A DNA stretch of 23,508 bases from the IMG/VR virus record IMGVR_UViG_2663763227_000016; one strand, 5' to 3'. A model generated the notes under the pieces. It made no database searches. It was given only the letters and a program-made list of their open reading frames with translations, and was not told where the DNA came from. The stretch is from a virus. Taxonomy: Duplodnaviria; Heunggongvirae; Uroviricota; Caudoviricetes. Below, piece by piece: positions 4,529 to 20,885 of this stretch (the stretch's first letter is position 1; each line of letters starts with the position of its first letter). The position numbers and the translations under genes are program-made.

Positions 4529-4586
4529 TTTAAAAAGGGTGGCAGAGCAGTCACGGAGTAGAACTGATGCCACCAAAGACTACACA
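4529..4586 (-). ncRNA. dicF: DicF small regulatory RNA (ftsZ-targeting), processed from the operon transcript
   Basis: The minus strand reads ...GTAGTCTTTGGTGGCATCAGTTCTACTCCGTGACTGCTCTGCCACCCTTTTTAAAG, nearly identical to my recollection of K-12 DicF. It has the long-range stem GGTGGCA/TGCCACC followed by a U-run. Ends are approximate (+/-5 nt). Confidence 0.8.
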
Positions 4587-4911
4587 TGGATATTGTGGCG
4601 GGGCTGTCACTTAAGCGTATGGTCAGCCTGACAACCCGGTGTCCTCAAGGGGAAGGAATAACCCCGCCATACTTACCGCCGCGCCATTTCGCGGATTGCC
4701 ACAACCGGAAGCGCACGGTCGAATTAAATTTAACGACAAAGTACAGAGAGACGAGCTTCTCCGTGTGCTTTCGCGTTATGCTCTGACTTTTCAGAGAAAT
4801 ATCCTTTCAGTAAACTGTCAGTGCCGGATGTTCACCCGTGTCCGGCGCACGCACTCCACTTCACCCGTGGAGAACTCCTTAATTACCAACCTTAGCTTCG
4901 TTGGTTAGCTA

Positions 4912-10846: not shown

Positions 10847-11083
10847 TTTTATGGATCACCTTTCTGATTGATTTCATATTGGCGAGGTGACGTGAGTTAA
10901 GTAGAATGGCTGCGGGTGCTTGAGGCTATCTGTCTCAGGCATGAACACTGAAAGGCAGATAGAGAAAAGCCCCAGTTAACATTTCGCGTCCTGCAAGACG
11001 CTTAACATTAATCTGAGGCCCAATCTATGTCTCACAAATGTAGGTTAGCCTCTTACGTGCCGAAAGGCAAGGGGAAGCAGGCT

Positions 11084-11239
11084 ATGAAGCAGCAAAAGGC
11101 GATGTTAATCGCCCTGATCGTCATCTGTTTAACCGTCATAGTGACGGCACTGGTAACGAGGAAAGACCTCTGCGAGGTACGACTCCGAACCGGCCAGACG
11201 GAGGTCGCTGTCTTCACAGCTTACGAACCTGAGGAGTAA
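11084..11239 (+). CDS. hokD: Hok/Gef-family type I toxin (HokD/RelF-like)
   Basis: 51-aa ORF MKQQKAMLIALIVICLTVIVTALVTRKDLCEVRLRTGQTEVAVFTAYEPEE, near-identical to Gef/RelF as I recall them. GGGGAAG ribosome-binding site; an in-frame upstream extension (from 11027) resembles a mok-type leader. Confidence 0.85.
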   Translation: MKQQKAMLIALIVICLTVIVTALVTRKDLCEVRLRTGQTEVAVFTAYEPEE

Positions 11240-15449: not shown

Positions 15450-15525
15450 GGCCCTTTAGCTCAGTGGTGAGAGCGAGCGACTCATAATCGCCAGGTCGCT
15501 GGTTCAAATCCAGCAAGGGCCACCA
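15450..15525 (+). tRNA. tRNA with CAU anticodon (Ile2-lysidine type or Met; ileZ-like)
   Basis: Manual cloverleaf: acceptor GGCCCTT/AAGGGCC, D-arm GCTC-AGTGGTGA-GAGC, anticodon loop CTCATAA, T-arm GCTGG-TTCAAAT-CCAGC, encoded CCA. Confidence 0.85.
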
Positions 15526-15532
15526 TCACATA

Positions 15533-15609
15533 CCGCCATTAGCTCATCAGGAAAGAGCGCCAGCTTTCGAAGCTGGTTGCGCGGAGTTCGGGTCCCCGAA
15601 GGCGGTCCA
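15533..15609 (+). tRNA. Possible tRNA-Arg (anticodon UCG), degenerate or pseudo-tRNA
   Basis: Manual fold: D-arm GCTC-ATCAGGAAA-GAGC, perfect anticodon stem CCAGC/GCTGG with loop TTTCGAA, encoded CCA. It has mismatches in the acceptor and T stems, a non-canonical T-loop (TTCGGGT) and starts with C. Confidence 0.45.
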
Positions 15610-15622
15610 TTATCTGTATCCT

Positions 15623-15699
15623 GCGTTGTTAGCTCAGCCGGACAGAGCAATTGCCTTCTAAGCAATCGGTCACTGGTTCGAATCCAGTACAACGCGCCA
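15623..15699 (+). tRNA. tRNA-Arg (anticodon UCU, reads AGA)
   Basis: Canonical cloverleaf: acceptor GCGTTGT/ACAACGC, D-arm GCTC-AGCCGGACA-GAGC, anticodon stem ATTGC/GCAAT with loop CTTCTAA, T-arm ACTGG-TTCGAAT-CCAGT, encoded CCA. Confidence 0.9.
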
Positions 15700-15743
15700 C
15701 ACTTATTTTCCCTGGCTCGCTTTTGCGGGCTTTTTTTAAATGT

Positions 15744-15958
15744 CTCACAATTCAGGCGGTTGACTGTTGTCTGGTTTGCGGGGAGTTTGTTAAAAGAAAC
15801 TGGCATGGTGAATCCCCCTGTGCGGAGGGGCAATCAGCGAGTAGGTATATGGGATAATCGCGGATTCAGGTGCTGGTACTGAATTCACCGGGAGGCACCC
15901 GGCACCATGCAATGGCACATAGCGCCACTCTCCAGCCCCTCTCCGGAGGGGCTTTTCT
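15744..15958 (+). repeat. Structured non-coding module, copy A (TTGACT box, two hairpins, terminator-like GCCCCTC-TCCG-GAGGGGC-TTTT)
   Basis: Shares with copy B, at a 468-bp offset, the blocks CTCACAATTCAG, CATGGTGAATCCCCCTG.GCGGAGGGGC, CACCGGGAGGCACCCGGCACCATG and CCCCTCTCCGGAGGGGCTTT. Confidence 0.6.
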
Positions 15959-16147
15959 GTGCCGGATACATCACAGTTTCTGGAACCTTAGGTACTACAG
16001 TATCAGTCAGGGTGCTATATTTTCAGATGTGATGAAAGCCTGTCAGCAGGCAGGGCGTATCGGAAATGACCCAGTAGAGAAAACGTTGACTCAGATACCG
16101 GTGCTGAGTTACCGGGAAACCGGCATCACATGACCGCTATCCTTCCA

Positions 16148-16174
16148 GGCCCATCCGCTCCGGTGGGCCTTTTT
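16148..16174 (+). terminator. Terminator-like hairpin between the two repeat modules
   Basis: GGCCCA-(10-nt loop)-TGGGCC followed by TTTTT. Confidence 0.5.
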
Positions 16175-16211
16175 ACTGCAGAAAACAGGTTCCCCGTTAA
16201 ATGCTATGTTG

Positions 16212-16444
16212 CTCACAATTCAGTAAGTTGACAGTTGCCTGTCAGACTGGGCATTTGTTAAAAAAATTTCGCATGGTGAATCCCCCTGAGCGGAGGGGCG
16301 ACTGGTGACGGTATAATCTCTGATTATCAAAACGAGAATGACGCGGGTTTAGTGGCACCGGGCTGAACTCACCGGGAGGCACCCGGCACCATGTGCATGA
16401 TGATACAGATACGCGGCTTTAGCCCCTCTCCGGAGGGGCTTTCT
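16212..16444 (+). repeat. Structured non-coding module, copy B (TTGACA box, GGTATAAT, hairpins, terminator-like hairpin)
   Basis: Diverged tandem copy of module A. It contains TTGACA (16229-16234) and a consensus-like TATAAT (16309-16314). Confidence 0.6.
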
Positions 16445-16673
16445 TATGGACAAAAAAAGCCCGCGCTGGGAGACGCGGGCGGCAAGGAATAAACAATAAA
16501 ACGTGAAGTAATATTTCAGCTGGCGAATAATACCCCATAGTAATCACTCTGCGCAACTGCGCGGTCTTTTTCGAATTGCGGGCTGTAGTCTCCCTTCTGC
16601 CATTGTCCTGTAACTTCCGGACTTCAGCCTGCTCCTTATCTGACTCACAACATTATCCCGCCCGGGAGGATTC

Positions 16674-18527
16674 ATGGCATTTAAACACTATGACGTGGTC
16701 AGGGCGGCATCGCCGTCAGACCTTGCGAAACGACTGACACAAAAACTGAAGGAGGGCTGGCAGCCGTTTGGTAGTCCGGTGGCCATAACCCCTTATACCC
16801 TGATGCAGGCGATTGCAGCAGAAGGTGATGTGGTCGTCAGTGGTGCAACTGAGCCGGAGTGGTACTACGTCATCGTACTGGCCGGGCAATCCAATGCCAT
16901 GGCTTACGGTGAAGGGCTTCCGCTTCCGGATTCATACGATGCGCCCCATCCGCGCATTAAGCAACTGGCCCGTCGTAACACAGTGACTCCCGGTGGTGAA
17001 GTATGCGTATTTAACGACATCATTCCTGCTGACCATTGTCTGCATGATGTTCAGGATATGAGTACGATTAACCATCCCCGGGCTGACCTGAGCAAAGGGC
17101 AGTACGGCTGTGTCGGACAGGGCTTACATATTGCCAAAAAACTGCTTCCGTATATCCCTAATAATGCGGGGATCCTGCTGGTACCATGCTGTCGTGGTGG
17201 TTCGGCATTCACCCAGGGCACGGAGGGGACATTCAGCGAGTCCACGGGAGCCAGTCAGGATTCGGCTCGCTGGGGAGTGGGTAAGCCGTTATATCAGGAT
17301 CTGCTTTTCCGCACGAAGGCAGCATTGCAGAAAAACCCGAAAAACGTTTTGCTGGCGATATGCTGGATGCAGGGGGAATTCGATATGACGAATGCCAGTT
17401 ACGCCCAGCAGCCAGCAGCATTTCTTGCAATGGTACAGCAGTTCCGTGCTGACCTTGCCGGGCTGGCGGCGCAGTGTCACGGTGGAAGTCCGGCATCAGT
17501 CCCCTGGATTTGTGGCGACACGACATACGCGTGGAAACAAGAACACGGTACGCAATATGAAGTGGTATATGGTGCATATAAAGGTAAAGAATCCCAGCAG
17601 ATTTATTTTGTTCCCTTTATGACCGATGGTAGCGGAGTTAATACACCGACAAACAACCCGTCAGAAGATCCTGATATTGCCGGGTCTGGTTATTACGGTT
17701 CGGCATCCCGAACGAACAAAAACTGGGTATCATCAAATCGCCCGACGCATTTCAGCTCATGGGCGCGTCGTGGCATTATTCCCGATCGTATGGCAACTGC
17801 TATTCTGAACGTAGCCGGTCGCACCTTAGCCTTCATTAGTGGTAAGGCACCGGAAATCAAACCCTCGCCCGGCGGCGACACGCCATCGGGGCCGTCTGAA
17901 GATGCATCCATACGCACAATCTCCCTGTTGCCGACAGCCGGAGACGCTGCTGCGCAGGGCTGGAGCATTAAGAATGGCGGAATTCAGTTGTCAGATGGTG
18001 TATTTAAGATCACCAAGCAGAGCAATAAAGCCTGGTCCCTGACGCGCCCGGTGGATGACGCAGTCTCCCTGCTGACACGGGGTGGCAGACTGAGCTGTAA
18101 GTTTCGACTGTCAGGCGCACTGACCAACAACCAGTTCGGTCTGGGAATTTATCTGTATACCGATGTAGCGTTACCTGACGTCGTGGCGATGACCGGGACT
18201 GGTAACCCGTTCCTGATGTCGTTCTTCACCCAGACCACAGACGGCAAACTGAATCTGATGCATCACAAGAAAGCAGGAAACACAAAGTTGGGCGAGTTCG
18301 GGAATTACAGTAACGACTGGCAGACGCTGGAGCTGGTGTTCACCGCCGGCAGTGCCACGGTTACTCCGAAACTGAATGGAGTGGCTGGCCCGGCATTCCA
18401 GGTCATAAAAGACAGTCTGACACTGGGGCTGAATGCGCTGACGCTGACGGATATTACCAAAAATGCAGCGTATGGCGTTGAGATAGAAAGTCTGGTGCTG
18501 GAGATAAATGCACCGGCATCATCATAA
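16674..18527 (+). CDS. Prophage sialate O-acetylesterase (NanS-p-like; SGNH/SASA esterase with C-terminal domain)
   Basis: 617-aa ORF with GGGAGGA ribosome-binding site. It carries the SGNH-hydrolase GQSN block (VIVLAGQSNAMAYGEG), and its position (after tRNAs, before the lysis genes) is that of nanS-p in Stx-phage-like prophages. Confidence 0.75.
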   Translation: MAFKHYDVVRAASPSDLAKRLTQKLKEGWQPFGSPVAITPYTLMQAIAAEGDVVVSGATEPEWYYVIVLAGQSNAMAYGEGLPLPDSYDAPHPRIKQLARRNTVTPGGEVCVFNDIIPADHCLHDVQDMSTINHPRADLSKGQYGCVGQGLHIAKKLLPYIPNNAGILLVPCCRGGSAFTQGTEGTFSESTGASQDSARWGVGKPLYQDLLFRTKAALQKNPKNVLLAICWMQGEFDMTNASYAQQPAAFLAMVQQFRADLAGLAAQCHGGSPASVPWICGDTTYAWKQEHGTQYEVVYGAYKGKESQQIYFVPFMTDGSGVNTPTNNPSEDPDIAGSGYYGSASRTNKNWVSSNRPTHFSSWARRGIIPDRMATAILNVAGRTLAFISGKAPEIKPSPGGDTPSGPSEDASIRTISLLPTAGDAAAQGWSIKNGGIQLSDGVFKITKQSNKAWSLTRPVDDAVSLLTRGGRLSCKFRLSGALTNNQFGLGIYLYTDVALPDVVAMTGTGNPFLMSFFTQTTDGKLNLMHHKKAGNTKLGEFGNYSNDWQTLELVFTAGSATVTPKLNGVAGPAFQVIKDSLTLGLNALTLTDITKNAAYGVEIESLVLEINAPASS

Positions 18528-18612
18528 AAAGTGAGCCAGCCAAATGGAAGGTATCGTTAAACTCACCGGTAGTGTCAGTGGGTCGTCTGAGATGCCTGCA
18601 TGAGTTATCAGA

Positions 18613-18642
18613 GCCATCAGTACTTAACTGGTGGCTTTTTTT
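18613..18642 (+). terminator. Intrinsic terminator upstream of the lysis cassette
   Basis: GCCATCAG-TACTTAA-CTGGTGGC stem-loop followed by TTTTTTT. Confidence 0.6.
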
Positions 18643-18677: not shown

Positions 18678-18893
18678 ATGTACCAGATGGAAAAAATCAC
18701 AACAGGTGTGTCATACACCACGTCAGCGGTGGGAACGGGCTACTGGTTCCTGCAGTTGCTGGACAGGGTTTCCCCGTCTCAGTGGGCGGCAATAGGCGTG
18801 CTGGGGAGTCTGCTGTTTGGGCTGCTGACATATCTGACTAACCTGTATTTCAAAATCAGAGAGGACCGTCGTAAGGCTGCACGGGGAGAGTAA
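18678..18893 (+). CDS. Class II holin (phage-21 S21-type pinholin) with dual start (antiholin from 18678, holin from 18687)
   Basis: [71 protein letters not shown] matches S21 as I recall it. Two transmembrane segments and the M-x-x-M dual-start motif; the ribosome-binding site is a G-rich run (GGGAG/GGGG) just upstream of the first ATG. Confidence 0.85.
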
Positions 18894-18897
18894 TTCA

Positions 18898-19242
18898 ATG
18901 ACTCAAAACTATGAACTGATTGTGAAAGGGATCCGCAATTTTGAGAATAAAGTTACGGTAACTTTAGCGTTACGGGACAAAAAACGCTTTGACGGTGAAA
19001 TTTTTGACCTGGACATCTCGCTGGACCGTGTTGAAGGTGCCTCGCTGGAGTTTTATGAGGCAGCAGCCAGAAGGAGCATCAGACAGGTCTTCCTGGATGT
19101 TGCTGCCGGGTTATGTGAAGGGGATGAGCAGTCGCCGGAAAAGCGCCCCGTAATTTTAGAGGCGCAGGATGTGTTGATAACCTACAGAGGAAAACTACCG
19201 GGAATAATTACGGGTTCTCTGAAGAGTCCGCCGAAATGGTAA
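18898..19242 (+). CDS. Hypothetical protein inserted between holin and endolysin (possibly YdfR-like)
   Basis: 114-aa ORF starting 4 nt after the holin stop with GGAGAG upstream. Qin carries ydfR at the same position; the family assignment is from memory of gene order only. Confidence 0.5.
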   Translation: MTQNYELIVKGIRNFENKVTVTLALRDKKRFDGEIFDLDISLDRVEGASLEFYEAAARRSIRQVFLDVAAGLCEGDEQSPEKRPVILEAQDVLITYRGKLPGIITGSLKSPPKW

Positions 19243-19480
19243 TTTTACCAGCATATTTTTCATCCAGTAATACGGCAAGCCGCCTGAAAGAGTCTTGTTG
19301 TTCCTGAGACCATTTGGGATTGCATGATTCAAACTGGATTGATGCCAGCGTTGATTGCATCTGTTCCCTTGGAATTGAGAATGCCAGATATGAGAAGGCG
19401 ACGGTAAGGGTATTCACGTCTTCCCGAAGCCTGGAAATGCTGTCGAGCAACTCCTGTAGAGAAATGGTGTTATTGTCCAT
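19208..19480 (-). CDS. Hypothetical protein, antisense within the lysis cassette
   Basis: 90-aa ORF with GAGGA 8 nt upstream of its ATG (19480). Its 3' end overlaps the convergent 114-aa gene by 35 nt. It is divergent from the endolysin across a 105-bp region. Confidence 0.4.
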   Translation of the reverse strand: MDNNTISLQELLDSISRLREDVNTLTVAFSYLAFSIPREQMQSTLASIQFESCNPKWSQEQQDSFRRLAVLLDEKYAGKITISADSSENP

Positions 19481-19585
19481 AAATAATCCTCATGATTGTA
19501 TTGACCTGTTAGCAGCCTGAGGCAACAGGCTGGAACTGATAAACATATCTAGGGCTCAGAAACCGATAAATCCTGATAAATATCC

Positions 19586-20119
19586 ATGAACGCAAAAATC
19601 AGATACGGCCTGTCGGCTGCCGTTTTGGCGCTGATTGCCGCTGGTGCGCCTGCGCCTGACATTCTCGACCAGTTTCTGGATGAAAAGGAAGGTAACCACA
19701 CCACGGAATACCGTGATGGCGCGGGTATCTGGACCATCTGCCGCGGTGCCATCCTGGTGGATGGCAAACCTGTCGTTCCGGGCATGAAGTTGTCGAAGGA
19801 AAAATGCGACCGGGTTAACGCCATTGAGCGTGATAAGGCGCTGGCATGGGTGGAGAAAAACATCAGAGTGCCATTGAGTGAACCCCAGAAAGCGGGGATC
19901 GCGTCATTCTGTCCGTACAACATTGGTCCCGGTAAGTGTTTCCCGTCGACGTTTTATAAACGAATTAATGCAGGTGATCGCAGGGGAGCGTGTGAGGCGA
20001 TTCGCTGGTGGATTAAGGACGGTGGCAGAGACTGCCGTGTCCGCTCAAATAACTGTTATGGTCAGGTATCCCGTCGTGACCAGGAGAGCGCGCTGGCGTG
20101 CTGGGGAATCGACAGATAA
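19586..20119 (+). CDS. SAR endolysin (phage-21 R-type lysozyme, GH24)
   Basis: 177-aa ORF with an N-terminal Gly/Ala-rich weakly hydrophobic signal-anchor-release segment (LSAAVLALIAAGAPAP) followed by the lysozyme catalytic E-x8-D-x5-T triad (EGNHTTEYRDGAGIWT). Confidence 0.85.
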   Translation: MNAKIRYGLSAAVLALIAAGAPAPDILDQFLDEKEGNHTTEYRDGAGIWTICRGAILVDGKPVVPGMKLSKEKCDRVNAIERDKALAWVEKNIRVPLSEPQKAGIASFCPYNIGPGKCFPSTFYKRINAGDRRGACEAIRWWIKDGGRDCRVRSNNCYGQVSRRDQESALACWGIDR

Positions 20120-20211
20120 GCAGAATATTTTGCTGAAAAATAAGGTATGGCCACGCGGGCGGATAACACGAAATCCTGCGAACTGGCGAAACGTAAGTGA
20201 ATAAAAGTAAA

Positions 20212-20248
20212 AACCCCGTTTGTTGGCACCAAGCGGGGTTTTGTGTTT
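20212..20248 (+). terminator. Terminator-like hairpin between endolysin and Rz
   Basis: CCCCGTTTG...CAAGCGGGG stem followed by TTTTGTGTTT. Confidence 0.5.
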
Positions 20249-20278
20249 CCTGACTCCGGAAAAGTCAAAGGAGAAAGT

Positions 20279-20416
20279 GTGTTTGATTTTAGCAAACTGA
20301 TTCGGGAGATTCGAGTGATGGCTGAAAAATTATCCACCTGGAAGTTCATTCTTATCTGGCTGGTGTTTGTGATTATGGCCTCCGGTTATTTCATCGGTCA
20401 GATACGCTGGTGGTGA
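20279..20416 (+). CDS. Small single-pass membrane protein ORF (45 aa) coupled to Rz
   Basis: GTG start with AAGGAG 5 nt upstream, product [45 protein letters not shown]. Its stop (20414-20416) lies 1 nt before the Rz ATG. It is below the size cutoff of the supplied ORF track. Confidence 0.35.
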
Positions 20417-20417
20417 A

Positions 20418-20885
20418 ATGAACCGCGTACTGTGCGTGGTCATCATTGCCCTGCTGGTGGCCTGTGGTGCGCTTAGTCTGGGGCTGAATCATTACCGTGA
20501 TAACGCCATTACCTACAAAGCCCAGCGCGACAAAAATGTCAGAGAACTGAAGCTGGCGAACGCGGCAATTACTGACATGCAGATGCGTCAGCGTGATGTT
20601 GCTGCGCTCGATGCAAAATACACGAAGGAGTTAGCTGATGCGAAAGCTGAAAATGAAACTCTTCGCGCTGACGTTGCCGCTGGTCGTAAGCGCCTGCGTA
20701 TCAACGCCACCTGTCCAGGTCCCGTGCGTGAAGCCACCGGCACCGCCCGCGTGGATAATGCAACCGGCCCCCAACTGGCAGACACCGTTACACGGGATTA
20801 TTTCACCCTCAGAGAGCGGCTGATGACGATGCAGAAGCAACTGGAAGGGGCGCAGGAATATATCCGTACTCAGTGCCTGAAATAA
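20418..20885 (+). CDS. Rz: Rz i-spanin
   Basis: 155-aa ORF with an N-terminal transmembrane segment and coiled-coil-like periplasmic domain, containing an embedded +1-frame lipoprotein ORF. Confidence 0.85.
20638..20823 (+). CDS. Rz1: Rz1 o-spanin lipoprotein, embedded in Rz in the +1 frame
   Basis: 61-aa ORF with GGAG ribosome-binding site, signal peptide plus lipobox (LVVSAC) and a proline-rich mature region ([16 protein letters not shown]). Confidence 0.8.

Follow-up and report, generated by a model that had tools for sequence, protein, structure and literature searches.

What are two additional genes, one of them reversed, doing between the holin and the endolysin of an E. coli prophage whose lysis cassette is of the best-studied type? 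Phage 21 has its holin and endolysin genes side by side. In the window, by which we mean the whole 23,508-nt stretch of Caudoviricetes DNA analysed here (IMG/VR record IMGVR_UViG_2663763227_000016), 692 bp and two genes lie between the holin stop and the endolysin start, although the cassette resembles that of phage 21 (S21/R21) in its type of holin, its type of lysozyme and the Rz/Rz1 pair downstream. The holin gene (positions 18678-18893, plus strand) encodes 71 residues of the class II, phage 21 S type (Pfam PF04971, E=2.3e-32), and in an APEC O18 record that is 99.8% identical to the window PGAP annotates this 71-aa form, at the matching position, as 'class II holin family protein'. Its N-terminus reads MYQM, which we take, from the sequence and from the 71- and 68-residue forms of S21, to be a dual start at codons 1 and 4. 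The endolysin gene (19586-20119, plus strand; PF00959, E=5e-23) encodes a phage lysozyme whose PDB relatives are the P21-type lysozyme (3hde/3hdf) and RrrD (4zpu); from its Ala/Gly-rich N-terminal segment it is presumably of the SAR type. The Rz spanin gene (20418-20885, plus strand; PF03245, E=4.2e-51) ends the cassette, with the Rz1 frame of the ORF list embedded in it (20638-20823, plus strand).

Within this setting the plus-strand gene (18898-19242, 114 aa) begins 4 nt (TTCA) past the holin stop at 18893, and the minus-strand gene (19480-19208, 90 aa) converges on it, with 35 nt (19208-19242) common to both 3' ends. The reversed gene has its own ribosome-binding site, GAGGA at 19491-19487 on the minus strand, 6 nt 5' of the ATG and conserved among E. 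coli copies, and a 105-bp divergent spacer (19481-19585) separates it from the endolysin ATG at 19586. These coordinates and the phage-21-like lysis context were both proposed in the preliminary description, and recomputation of every position together with the profile and structure matches bore them out. Both genes are annotated by NCBI PGAP in genomes 99.8% identical to the window, the reversed product as WP_000369850.1, whose family carries the UniRef name 'Ybl58'. Beyond that description, the analysis yielded the boundaries of an insertion, alternative cassettes at the same junction and a conserved C-terminal tail in the forward partner.

The plus-strand gene is a regular component of such cassettes. 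A guess that it encodes a DUF1327 protein was correct: PF07041 matches residues 1-111 at E=1.7e-42, with 144 bits against a cut-off of 25, and phrog_406 matches the full length at E=7.6e-68. Many E. coli prophages have this gene, ydfR, at the same place in the late operon, flanked by class II holin and lysozyme genes. The K-12 Qin prophage (essQ-ydfR-rrrQ), BP-4795 and vB_EcoS-689R5 share this order, and in them too ydfR starts 4 nt past the holin stop. Unlike the window, these three cassettes have no reversed gene, and ydfR abuts or nearly abuts the lysozyme gene, in Qin with a 4-nt overlap and no insert. In an AF2 model of the window protein, residues 1-71 form a beta-beta-beta-alpha domain and residues 69-114 a tail that is predicted to be disordered and ends in ITGSLKSPPKW; the tail is conserved as strongly as the folded domain (alignment A6). 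Residues 1-74 are 80% identical to K-12 YdfR and show no similarity to it beyond that point, the C-terminal 30 residues of the K-12 protein being different. In the literature searched, YdfR is treated experimentally in one paper only, and we found no mention of the reversed gene. Residues 1-72 of K-12 YdfR bind the N-terminal catalytic half of RNase E by two-hybrid and pull-down assays, RNA co-purifies with the protein, and its overproduction is reported to change only a few transcripts (PMC13232886). By analogy with this paralogue, which has another C-terminus and whose link to RNase E comes from that single paper, the window ydfR product most likely targets RNA metabolism of the host at a late stage of infection and does not serve to disrupt the envelope, its gene being read together with the lysis genes as an ordinary part of the late operon would be.

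Is the reversed ORF a gene at all? It had been suggested that one of the two ORFs might be spurious; for the minus-strand ORF this would mean a frame lying by accident opposite non-coding DNA or opposite a plus-strand coding sequence. Its product has no Pfam family or known function, and a few copies are frameshifted or contain stops, as an accidental frame would allow. The sequence comparisons nevertheless make this reading almost certainly wrong. The 90-aa protein matches phrog_2411 over residues 1-90 of 90 (E=1.1e-58), distant members match too, and the frame is still open in other genera at 25-60% amino-acid identity. Across 10 homologues the differences at the three codon positions number 502, 452 and 1096, the third position having about twice as many as either of the others, and the median dN/dS in the gene's own frame is 0.23. 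Four of the five other frames have a median above 1; the antisense frame that shares wobble positions with the gene gives 0.20 but contains 10 stops, and each of the five holds 10-54 stops against 1 in the gene's own frame. The reversed gene is under purifying selection, and with the Pfam match of ydfR both ORFs are conserved and coding.

The pair is also widespread. All 80 copies of the reversed gene on viral contigs are intact, and the order S-ydfR-rev-R is kept wherever the contig is long enough, with all three flanking genes visible in 73 of the 80, so that the conservation across prophages proposed as a check was found. Among complete E. coli genomes 1207 of 5426 (22%) carry the reversed gene, including BL21, APEC and ST131 strains. 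An arrangement thought unusual is therefore common, though unstudied.

The origin of the arrangement is visible at the junction between ydfR and the endolysin gene R. In vB_EcoS-689R5 and BP-4795 the order is holin-ydfR-R and ydfR lies just 50-63 bp from R. Aligned with these empty junctions, the window contains an inserted cassette of ~290 bp (~19237-19527): homology of the insert-free phages stops at ~19236 and restarts at ~19528. On the insert are codons 1-81 of the reversed gene together with the ribosome-binding site and ~45 bp upstream; ydfR takes its final two codons and its stop (KW and stop) from the left end of the insert. Since positions 19208-19236 are ydfR sequence common to the insert-free phages, the terminal ~9 codons of the reversed ORF, and its stop, come from the strand antisense to ydfR. 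The cassette itself provides no stop for the inserted ORF, which therefore reads 28 nt into the ydfR antisense, while ydfR gained a new two-codon end from the cassette. Judged from these alignments, the 35-nt overlap is a by-product of insertion. The junction is polymorphic in nature. In 1367 genomes it is empty, with the ydfR tail followed by the lysozyme gene; in 1152-1207 genomes it is filled with the phrog_2411 reversed gene; and in 294-314 genomes it holds a reversed gene of phrog_2572 together with an extension of ydfR.

Presence or absence at exactly this junction, between genes that are otherwise adjacent, agrees with one option raised earlier, that the reversed gene is a moron. The insert also differs in base composition from its flanks, although modestly (44% GC versus 48-55%). 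Lambda bor and lom are classical lambdoid morons, after the concept of Hendrix and Juhala. Like them, the reversed gene is an extra gene of lower GC content between genes that are neighbours in sister phages, it is oriented independently of the late operon, and copies remain in degraded prophages and in islands. Unlike bor and lom, it shows no clear promoter or terminator in our scans, it overlaps the 3' end of a neighbouring late gene whose tail is conserved along with it, and its product is predicted to be cytoplasmic rather than an envelope protein.

Relatives of the reversed gene occur well outside lysis cassettes. One copy, on a plasmid (L002), is homologous to window positions 19241-19491 only. 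Others, one copy each, adjoin iha, lie downstream of an AIDA-like autotransporter, sit in reverse orientation between the tail genes gpM and gpL, and are found in the core chromosome between dinI and bssS; comparisons with these copies give dN/dS values of 0.16-0.36. In Citrobacter and Stx2k phages the gene is again beside holin genes, and the Citrobacter copy is adjoined by HicAB, a separate system. Because relatives occupy tail-operon, iha, plasmid and chromosomal contexts, we regard the reversed gene as an accessory (moron) gene and not as a part of the lysis clock or a toxin-antitoxin partner.

How such a gene is expressed can be considered from its position. Since Q-dependent late transcription runs in the opposite direction, the reversed gene must, as we infer from its orientation, have a transcript of its own, with the 105-bp spacer as its presumed promoter region; most likely it would then also be expressed in the lysogen. 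In the phage contexts examined (the window, L005, L017 and L021) the spacer upstream of the reversed gene measures 105-190 bp, in late operons where neighbouring genes mostly abut or overlap. The window spacer contains a conserved -10-like TACAAT (19500-19495, minus strand) with a weak -35, TTGCCT, at 19-nt spacing. A consensus sigma-70 scan of 19481-19585 found no site with at least 9 of 12 matches, and a hexamer scan of 12 regions upstream of reversed genes found no convincing promoter in any context. A hairpin in the spacer (CAGCCTG-AGGCAA-CAGGCTG, 19513-19532) folds no better than shuffled sequence, and an Rfam search of 18898-19585 returned no family. A possible terminator of the reversed transcript lies inside ydfR (19165-19139, minus strand), with a 7-bp GC-rich stem, a 9-nt loop and UUUU; the surrounding region (19130-19250, minus strand) has z = -2.07. 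The consensus scan missed this candidate because its loop exceeds 8 nt, and the same hairpin is also present in insert-free phages.

The reversed protein is acidic (pI 4.5), has no transmembrane segment and is predicted to be soluble; its highest Kyte-Doolittle 19-residue window is 0.75 and its N-terminus is not signal peptide-like. Throughout the family the pI is 4.4-6.1 and transmembrane segments are absent. An AF2 model with pLDDT 69 predicts helices at residues 8-35, 38-51 and 59-77, with residues 79-90 below 50, a C-terminus that is also variable among homologues. Profile searches of Pfam, NCBIfam and PADLOC gave nothing above threshold, Foldseek against PDB and BFVD yielded no match better than E=0.45, and a PDB sequence profile search was empty. 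An NCBIfam match to the anti-silencing protein Mip covered 15 residues (E=0.037, 13.7 bits versus a cut-off of 50) and was set aside as chance. Comparison by hhalign of phrog_2411 with phrog_2572, phrog_6806 and the 83-aa ORF of L109 gave probabilities of 0.6%, 0.2% and 6%, values that do not show homology. The broad alignment A4 was too divergent for locus searches. Since no relative of known function was matched by sequence or structure, any activity given to the protein is a guess.

Taken together, these observations favor a mosaic origin of the holin-endolysin spacer as the probable explanation, in which the late gene ydfR and a reversed moron on a ~290-bp insert have separate histories. 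The moron would encode a soluble acidic three-helix protein, most likely one that binds another protein, and its role would not be tied to lysis timing. The position of the gene between holin and endolysin, convergent with late transcription, could instead serve to limit leaky or premature lysis, with either the gene or its transcript, extending antisense through ydfR and the holin gene, damping the lysis genes by transcriptional interference, as antisense RNA or through an antiholin-like factor. The Citrobacter and Stx2k copies beside holin genes fit such a role, and the terminator-like hairpin at 19165-19139 is weak enough that the transcript could reach ydfR. However, selection acts on the protein sequence and not on transcription only. 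An antiholin would be expected to have a membrane segment or periplasmic targeting and to be confined to lysis cassettes, whereas this protein has neither feature; its relatives include a plasmid copy as well as tail-operon, island and core-chromosome copies that have no lysis genes nearby. Insert-free cassettes are moreover as frequent as filled ones. A role in lysis timing, another option of the preliminary description, is unlikely on this evidence, and we consider leak control improbable.

More improbable still is that YdfR and the reversed protein act as a toxin-antitoxin or abortive-infection pair; a toxin-antitoxin-like pair had been put forward in the preliminary description and was not supported. 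The two genes are small, adjacent and overlapping, one running backwards as in some type I systems, and HicAB lies beside the Citrobacter copy, though as its own system. Type II pairs are co-directional, co-transcribed and inseparable, whereas these genes converge and each is common without the other. Neither protein matches a toxin, antitoxin or defence profile in PADLOC, Pfam or NCBIfam, and Rfam places no antitoxin RNA at the locus. The text available from the K-12 study reports no toxicity on overproduction of YdfR, unlike YegJ, which arrested growth in the same work (PMC13232886).

A rival that bears more directly on the moron reading arises from the forward partner. Four phage contexts have a forward ORF that converges on a phrog_2411 member and terminates in the motif I-T/F-G-S/D-L-K-x-P. 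The four ORFs are E. coli YdfR, a 238-aa ORF in Citrobacter, a 71-aa coiled-coil ORF between gpM and gpL and a 66-aa ORF near a terminase, and their N-termini have no recognisable relationship. A regular expression for the motif matched 41 of 6728 six-frame peptides, all of them these partners, although the expression was built from the very sequences it later matched. Tail codons differ synonymously between contexts, which indicates selection on the tail peptide, and the tails are 30-45% identical (counted by eye), in step with the 38-60% identity of the reversed proteins. We also considered the Citrobacter 238-aa ORF as a DUF1327 protein; BLASTP and Pfam gave this no support, the last ~35 residues alone being YdfR-like. 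If the moron stood entirely by itself, a shared tail motif would not be expected; the motif thus points to a link between the reversed gene and the ydfR tail.

The link may extend to exchange of the two parts together. The gpM-gpL gene has a constant 47-aa N-terminus and alternative tails, and the three examined are each followed by a different reversed small ORF; at ydfR, too, alternative tails are paired with alternative reversed genes. These pairings are hints of exchangeable cassettes made of a tail and a reversed gene. On this explanation the forward C-terminal tail and the reversed gene are a functional unit in which the three-helix protein binds the disordered YdfR tail as an inhibitor, immunity-like factor, chaperone or sensor, and whole cassettes pass between phages. 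That the tail is conserved like a folded domain and yet predicted to be disordered would suit a binding partner. Several observations weigh against it. The tail is very common without the reversed gene (the 1367 genomes with an empty junction, BP-4795, Stx phages), and the reversed gene is also common without the tail and still under selection. An HMM of the E. coli tail recognised the other partners weakly (E 0.24 to 5.5), and at a fifth member, L023, the forward partner does not end in the motif. Recombination breakpoints within the forward gene could by themselves account for co-transfer. We therefore hold a cognate pair to be possible but doubtful, behind the mosaic of ydfR and an independent moron. 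Somewhat more tentative again is the general form of the idea, that lambdoid prophages of Enterobacterales carry exchangeable two-part late-operon cassettes in which a late protein, either the YdfR of the lysis cassette or the coiled-coil protein encoded between gpM and gpL, receives a short disordered tail, and a reversed, independently expressed small helical protein binds that tail.

Polymorphic toxin systems provide a comparison for such cassettes. In the operons of pore-forming colicins a reversed immunity gene lies between the colicin gene and the lysis gene. The window locus resembles colicin operons, and CDI and Rhs loci, in having a constant N-terminal part, an exchangeable C-terminal end and then a small, cognate-looking gene, with alternative ends paired with alternative small genes; as in the colicin operons, the small gene points backwards and immediately precedes the lysis functions. 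A variable end that changes with the adjacent small gene was seen at two host genes, a small sample. Unlike the ends of colicin, CDI and Rhs proteins, the variable end is only 11-97 residues long, and the one modelled is predicted to be disordered and has no toxin domain. The end often occurs without a small gene and the small gene without the end, as the 1367 genomes with the tail directly before the lysozyme gene illustrate. Colicin immunity proteins of this kind are membrane proteins, whereas the reversed protein is predicted to be soluble and its binding to the tail is hypothetical.

Three findings, the selected coding status of the reversed ORF, its place on a defined ~290-bp insert and the existence of empty and alternative alleles in nature, count strongly against reading this locus as a lysis timer or a toxin-antitoxin pair, and they supply clean constructs for experiments. 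If the tail and the reversed protein are not cognate, the reversed gene is one more common, ordinary moron. If a tail/binder system does exist, a resident prophage could use it to control or sense a late protein, here a putative binder of RNase E, or to discriminate its own from a related phage. A truly cognate pair would add a new type of exchangeable module to those seen in the late operons of phages, and through it prophage accessory genes might connect to RNase E biology.

The holin gene at 18678-18893 (plus strand; stop at 18893) encodes a class II holin of the phage 21 type in its 71-aa form (PF04971, E=2.3e-32), and PGAP calls a 71-aa holin at the equivalent position of an E. coli APEC O18 prophage that is 99.8% identical to the window over this stretch. 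Four bases past the holin end starts ydfR (18898-19242, plus strand, 114 aa), which converges with a reversed gene (19480-19208, minus strand, 90 aa) carrying a GAGGA six bases upstream of its ATG. The two 3' ends have 35 nt in common, and 105 bp separate the reversed gene from the ATG (19586) of the plus-strand endolysin, a phage lysozyme (PF00959) with related solved structures 3hde/3hdf and RrrD 4zpu; Rz (PF03245) has Rz1 embedded in it. Both ORFs, the 4-nt gap, overlap, ribosome-binding site and spacer had been placed exactly in the preliminary description, and the domain matches and structural relatives confirm the holin and endolysin flanks that it described. The window is a lambdoid prophage laid out as in Shiga-toxin phages: Q, methyltransferase, three tRNAs, sialate-esterase-like gene, lysis genes and terminase.

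Several further features were recorded along this layout. A direct repeat, GATAAATCCTGATAAAT (19555-19585), lies directly 5' of the lysozyme ATG and is kept in insert-bearing and insert-free phages; no Shine-Dalgarno is evident there, just upstream of that ATG. Terminator-like hairpins with T-runs occur on the plus strand in the late operon just 5' of the holin gene (18610-18638) and in the 298-bp lysozyme-Rz gap (20210-20242), which also holds a 57-aa ORF with a hydrophobic C-terminus (20243-20416) and in related phages contains ant or other genes. In one rearranged cassette (L055, 2362-4785), the holin gene is followed by a 116-aa ydfR with the insert-free end, a lysozyme gene and half of Rz, joined to the final 39 codons of a ydfR tail; after this come the reversed gene and another lysozyme gene. 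Between the methyltransferase and esterase genes (15450-16674), the stx site in Shiga-toxin phages, no toxin gene was found; the interval carries three tRNA genes (15450-15699; ARAGORN Met(cat), Arg(tcg) and Arg(tct), the first named tRNA-Ile by PGAP) followed by two sRNAs of the STnc100 family (15774-15964 and 16242-16451). Rfam matches in the prophage early region were a sok antitoxin RNA of the hok/sok type (10914-11089, 120 bits) and the DicF sRNA (4537-4588, 61 bits).

Both ORFs are genuine genes. The plus-strand ORF is ydfR, as the suggested DUF1327 match bears out (144 bits against a Pfam cut-off of 25), and it matches phrog_406 over its full length. All 90 residues of the minus-strand product are covered by phrog_2411 (E=1.1e-58); it belongs to no Pfam family, and is named "hypothetical protein" by PGAP and Ybl58 in UniRef. 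We tallied substitutions per codon position in ten homologues with 57-100% amino-acid identity and found counts of 502/452/1096 in its own frame, with a median dN/dS of 0.23 and one stop among the ten sequences. The other five frames each contained 10-54 stops and four had a median dN/dS above 1; the antisense frame sharing wobble positions gave 0.20, yet had 10 stops. With all 80 copies from viral contigs intact as well, the third-position excess and own-frame dN/dS contradict the earlier suspicion that one ORF might be spurious. A complete HMMER scan of 1.84 billion representative proteins recovered only 19 clusters of the reversed protein, all short save one, a probable coiled-coil false positive. 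Even members as distant as 25-40% identity retain this length and the core motif AFSYLAFS..E....T..L.FES.N.

Alignment to phages vB_EcoS-689R5 and BP-4795, where the order is holin, ydfR (116 or 114 aa), lysozyme and the last two are only 63 or 50 bp apart, indicates that the minus-strand ORF is an insertion at the ydfR 3' end. Homology ends past the ...SLK(S/T)PP codons (~19236) and restarts at ~19528, 58 bp 5' of the lysozyme ATG, and the insert is therefore ~290 bp long. From the reversed ORF it contains codons 1-81, together with the ribosome-binding site and ~45 bp upstream, and its GC content is 44%, compared with 48-55% on either side. For its final nine codons and stop (19208-19236), the reversed ORF uses ydfR sequence found in insert-free phages too, while the last two codons (KW) and stop of ydfR come from the insert, insert-free versions ending in ESQP or LA. 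The 35-nt overlap is thus mechanical, because the insert ORF ends within ydfR sequence and ydfR ends within the insert, and the reversed protein has a variable, predicted-disordered C-terminus because its last codons are borrowed from ydfR.

Counts over complete E. coli genomes gave 1367 with a contiguous empty junction and 1152-1207 with this insert; a third allele, in 294-314, combines an extended ydfR with a different reversed gene. In that allele ydfR continues for 70-97 coiled-coil-like residues past ...SLKTPP, ends in ...FEESKSLQ and overlaps by 53 nt a reversed 86-aa gene of family phrog_2572; we saw it in phages PhiR5_1 (L015 2001-2844) and PhiR63_1 (L014 2001-2760). K-12 Qin represents a fourth state, in which homology to the window breaks at ~19104, the C-terminal 30 residues of ydfR differ and the gene shares 4 nt with rrrQ.

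The reversed gene also occurs in other surroundings. In an Stx2k phage it follows a class II holin and ydfR and precedes a second, unrelated holin/M15-peptidase cassette. A 60%-identical homologue in a Citrobacter prophage (L005) is reversed just 5' of a lambda-S-type holin, CHAP endolysin and DUF2514 spanin; a 38%-identical member in Atlantibacter hermannii-type prophages (L017) sits in reverse orientation among the tail genes, between gpM and gpL; and another phrog_2411 member is reversed 5' of two unknown genes and terminase. The Citrobacter prophage also has, at the stx position of Stx phages (L005 5087-6847) just 5' of a 238-aa ORF, a pertussis-toxin-S1-like ADP-ribosyltransferase gene and a reversed HicA/HicB pair. 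Two paralogues are diverged, though intact: one is on a chromosomal island, oriented divergently to iha, an adhesin/siderophore receptor gene (L003 3946-4218), and the other is on a 78-kb plasmid, 3' of an AIDA-like autotransporter (L002 3971-4240), where homology to the window is confined to 19241-19491, essentially the insert. Homology at iha takes in the first 22 nt of the phage lysozyme gene, and this copy is therefore a captured prophage fragment; its exact protein is on at least 1000 contigs. Two distant members (~30% identity; L025 4001-4279 and L016 5001-5294) are stand-alone core-chromosome genes, one between dinI and bssS in the pyrC-dinI-bssS-solA neighbourhood. In comparisons that take in these copies dN/dS is still 0.16-0.36, and retention of the reversed gene therefore depends on neither ydfR nor lysis genes.

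The reversed protein is soluble and acidic (pI 4.5; family 4.4-6.1), with no membrane segment in sequence analysis. AlphaFold2 predicts three helices (8-35, 38-51 and 59-77) at moderate confidence (pLDDT 69). The model resembled no structure in PDB or BFVD, Pfam, NCBIfam, PADLOC and PDB sequences gave no profile matches, and no functional homologue emerged from these profile and structure searches. In the model of the 114-aa YdfR, residues 5-71 form three strands and a helix, and the tail at 69-114 is as conserved as the folded part despite a pLDDT of ~30. Over residues 1-74 it shares 80% identity with K-12 YdfR. Two-hybrid and pull-down experiments in a 2026 study (PMC13232886) showed that residues 1-72 of the K-12 protein bind the catalytic, N-terminal half of RNase E, and RNA co-purified with K-12 YdfR. 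By analogy with this paralogue, YdfR probably acts on RNase E or RNA, not the envelope.

The preliminary description had offered a toxin-antitoxin-like pair or a moron. We reject the former, since the genes converge, each is often found by itself and PADLOC has no matching profile; in addition, overproduced K-12 YdfR altered few transcripts, with toxicity not mentioned in the available part of that study (PMC13232886). An antiholin-like lysis regulator is likewise rejected, given the missing membrane segment and a family not confined to lysis cassettes. The reversed gene fits the moron pattern in a lambdoid late operon, because it is an extra gene at a junction closed in sister phages, its insert is lower in GC than the flanks, it opposes the Q-dependent late transcript, it has a 105-190 bp upstream spacer in operons whose neighbours mostly abut or overlap, and it survives in islands and in degraded prophages such as BL21 Rac. 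As a moron it would be transcribed independently, probably in the lysogen too, and its product would work through binding a protein. The ydfR gene itself is a late gene read together with the lysis genes. This reading is weakened by consensus and hexamer scans of the upstream regions, which found no good sigma-70 promoter, only a conserved TACAAT 14 nt 5' of the ATG that is paired, at 19-nt spacing, with a weak -35. On the minus strand, a hairpin with U4 inside ydfR (19165-19139) could end the reversed transcript.

A rival explanation, which we regard as possible though rather doubtful, is that the exchanged unit is a cognate cassette of a late-protein C-terminal tail and a reversed small gene. 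In its favor, the ORFs convergent with phrog_2411 members in four phage contexts have N-terminal parts without recognisable relationship and carry the same terminal peptide: TYRGKLPGIITGSLKSPPKW in E. coli YdfR, KIEGKIRNEKITGSLRVPMKL in the Citrobacter 238-aa ORF, SIKGNIFSDQIFGDLKKPPSY in a 71-aa ORF between gpM and gpL, and VIKGGQLRYKRLTGDILIPLES in a 66-aa ORF near terminase, each followed by the stop. Tail codons differ at synonymous sites across contexts, and selection therefore acts on the forward peptide. Six-frame translation of all fetched DNA gave 6728 distinct peptides (424,035 residues), of which a regular expression for the core motif matched 41, all of them YdfR or these partner ORFs; written after the tails were seen, the expression shows specificity, not independent discovery. 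The small coiled-coil gpM-gpL gene combines a constant 47-residue N-terminus with at least six alternative ends, and the three examined each lie beside a different reversed, 3'-overlapping small ORF (phrog_2411 at L017 5001-5476, phrog_6806 at L112 2501-2882 and an unassigned 83-aa ORF at L109 2501-2933), a variety that mirrors the ydfR alleles. The layout recalls pore-forming colicin operons, whose immunity gene is reversed and separates the colicin gene from the lysis gene. Against a strict pair, however, the tail very often lacks the reversed gene (the 1367 empty-junction genomes), and the reversed gene occurs without the tail at the iha, AIDA-like and core-chromosome copies, with no convergent partner ORF carrying the motif at the last (L025, L016). 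A fifth phrog_2411 member has a partner ORF without the terminal motif, tail HMM scores are weak for other partners, and recombination breakpoint positions alone could give co-transfer.

Databases already list both genes as hypothetical families, and the arrangement, initially thought unusual, is common, the reversed gene being carried by 1207 of 5426 complete E. coli genomes. The literature searched yielded nothing on the reversed gene and one paper treating YdfR experimentally (PMC13232886). The reading we favor is that of an uncharacterised moron in the lambdoid late operon, and the part worth following is the pattern of a tail plus a reversed gene as a cassette.
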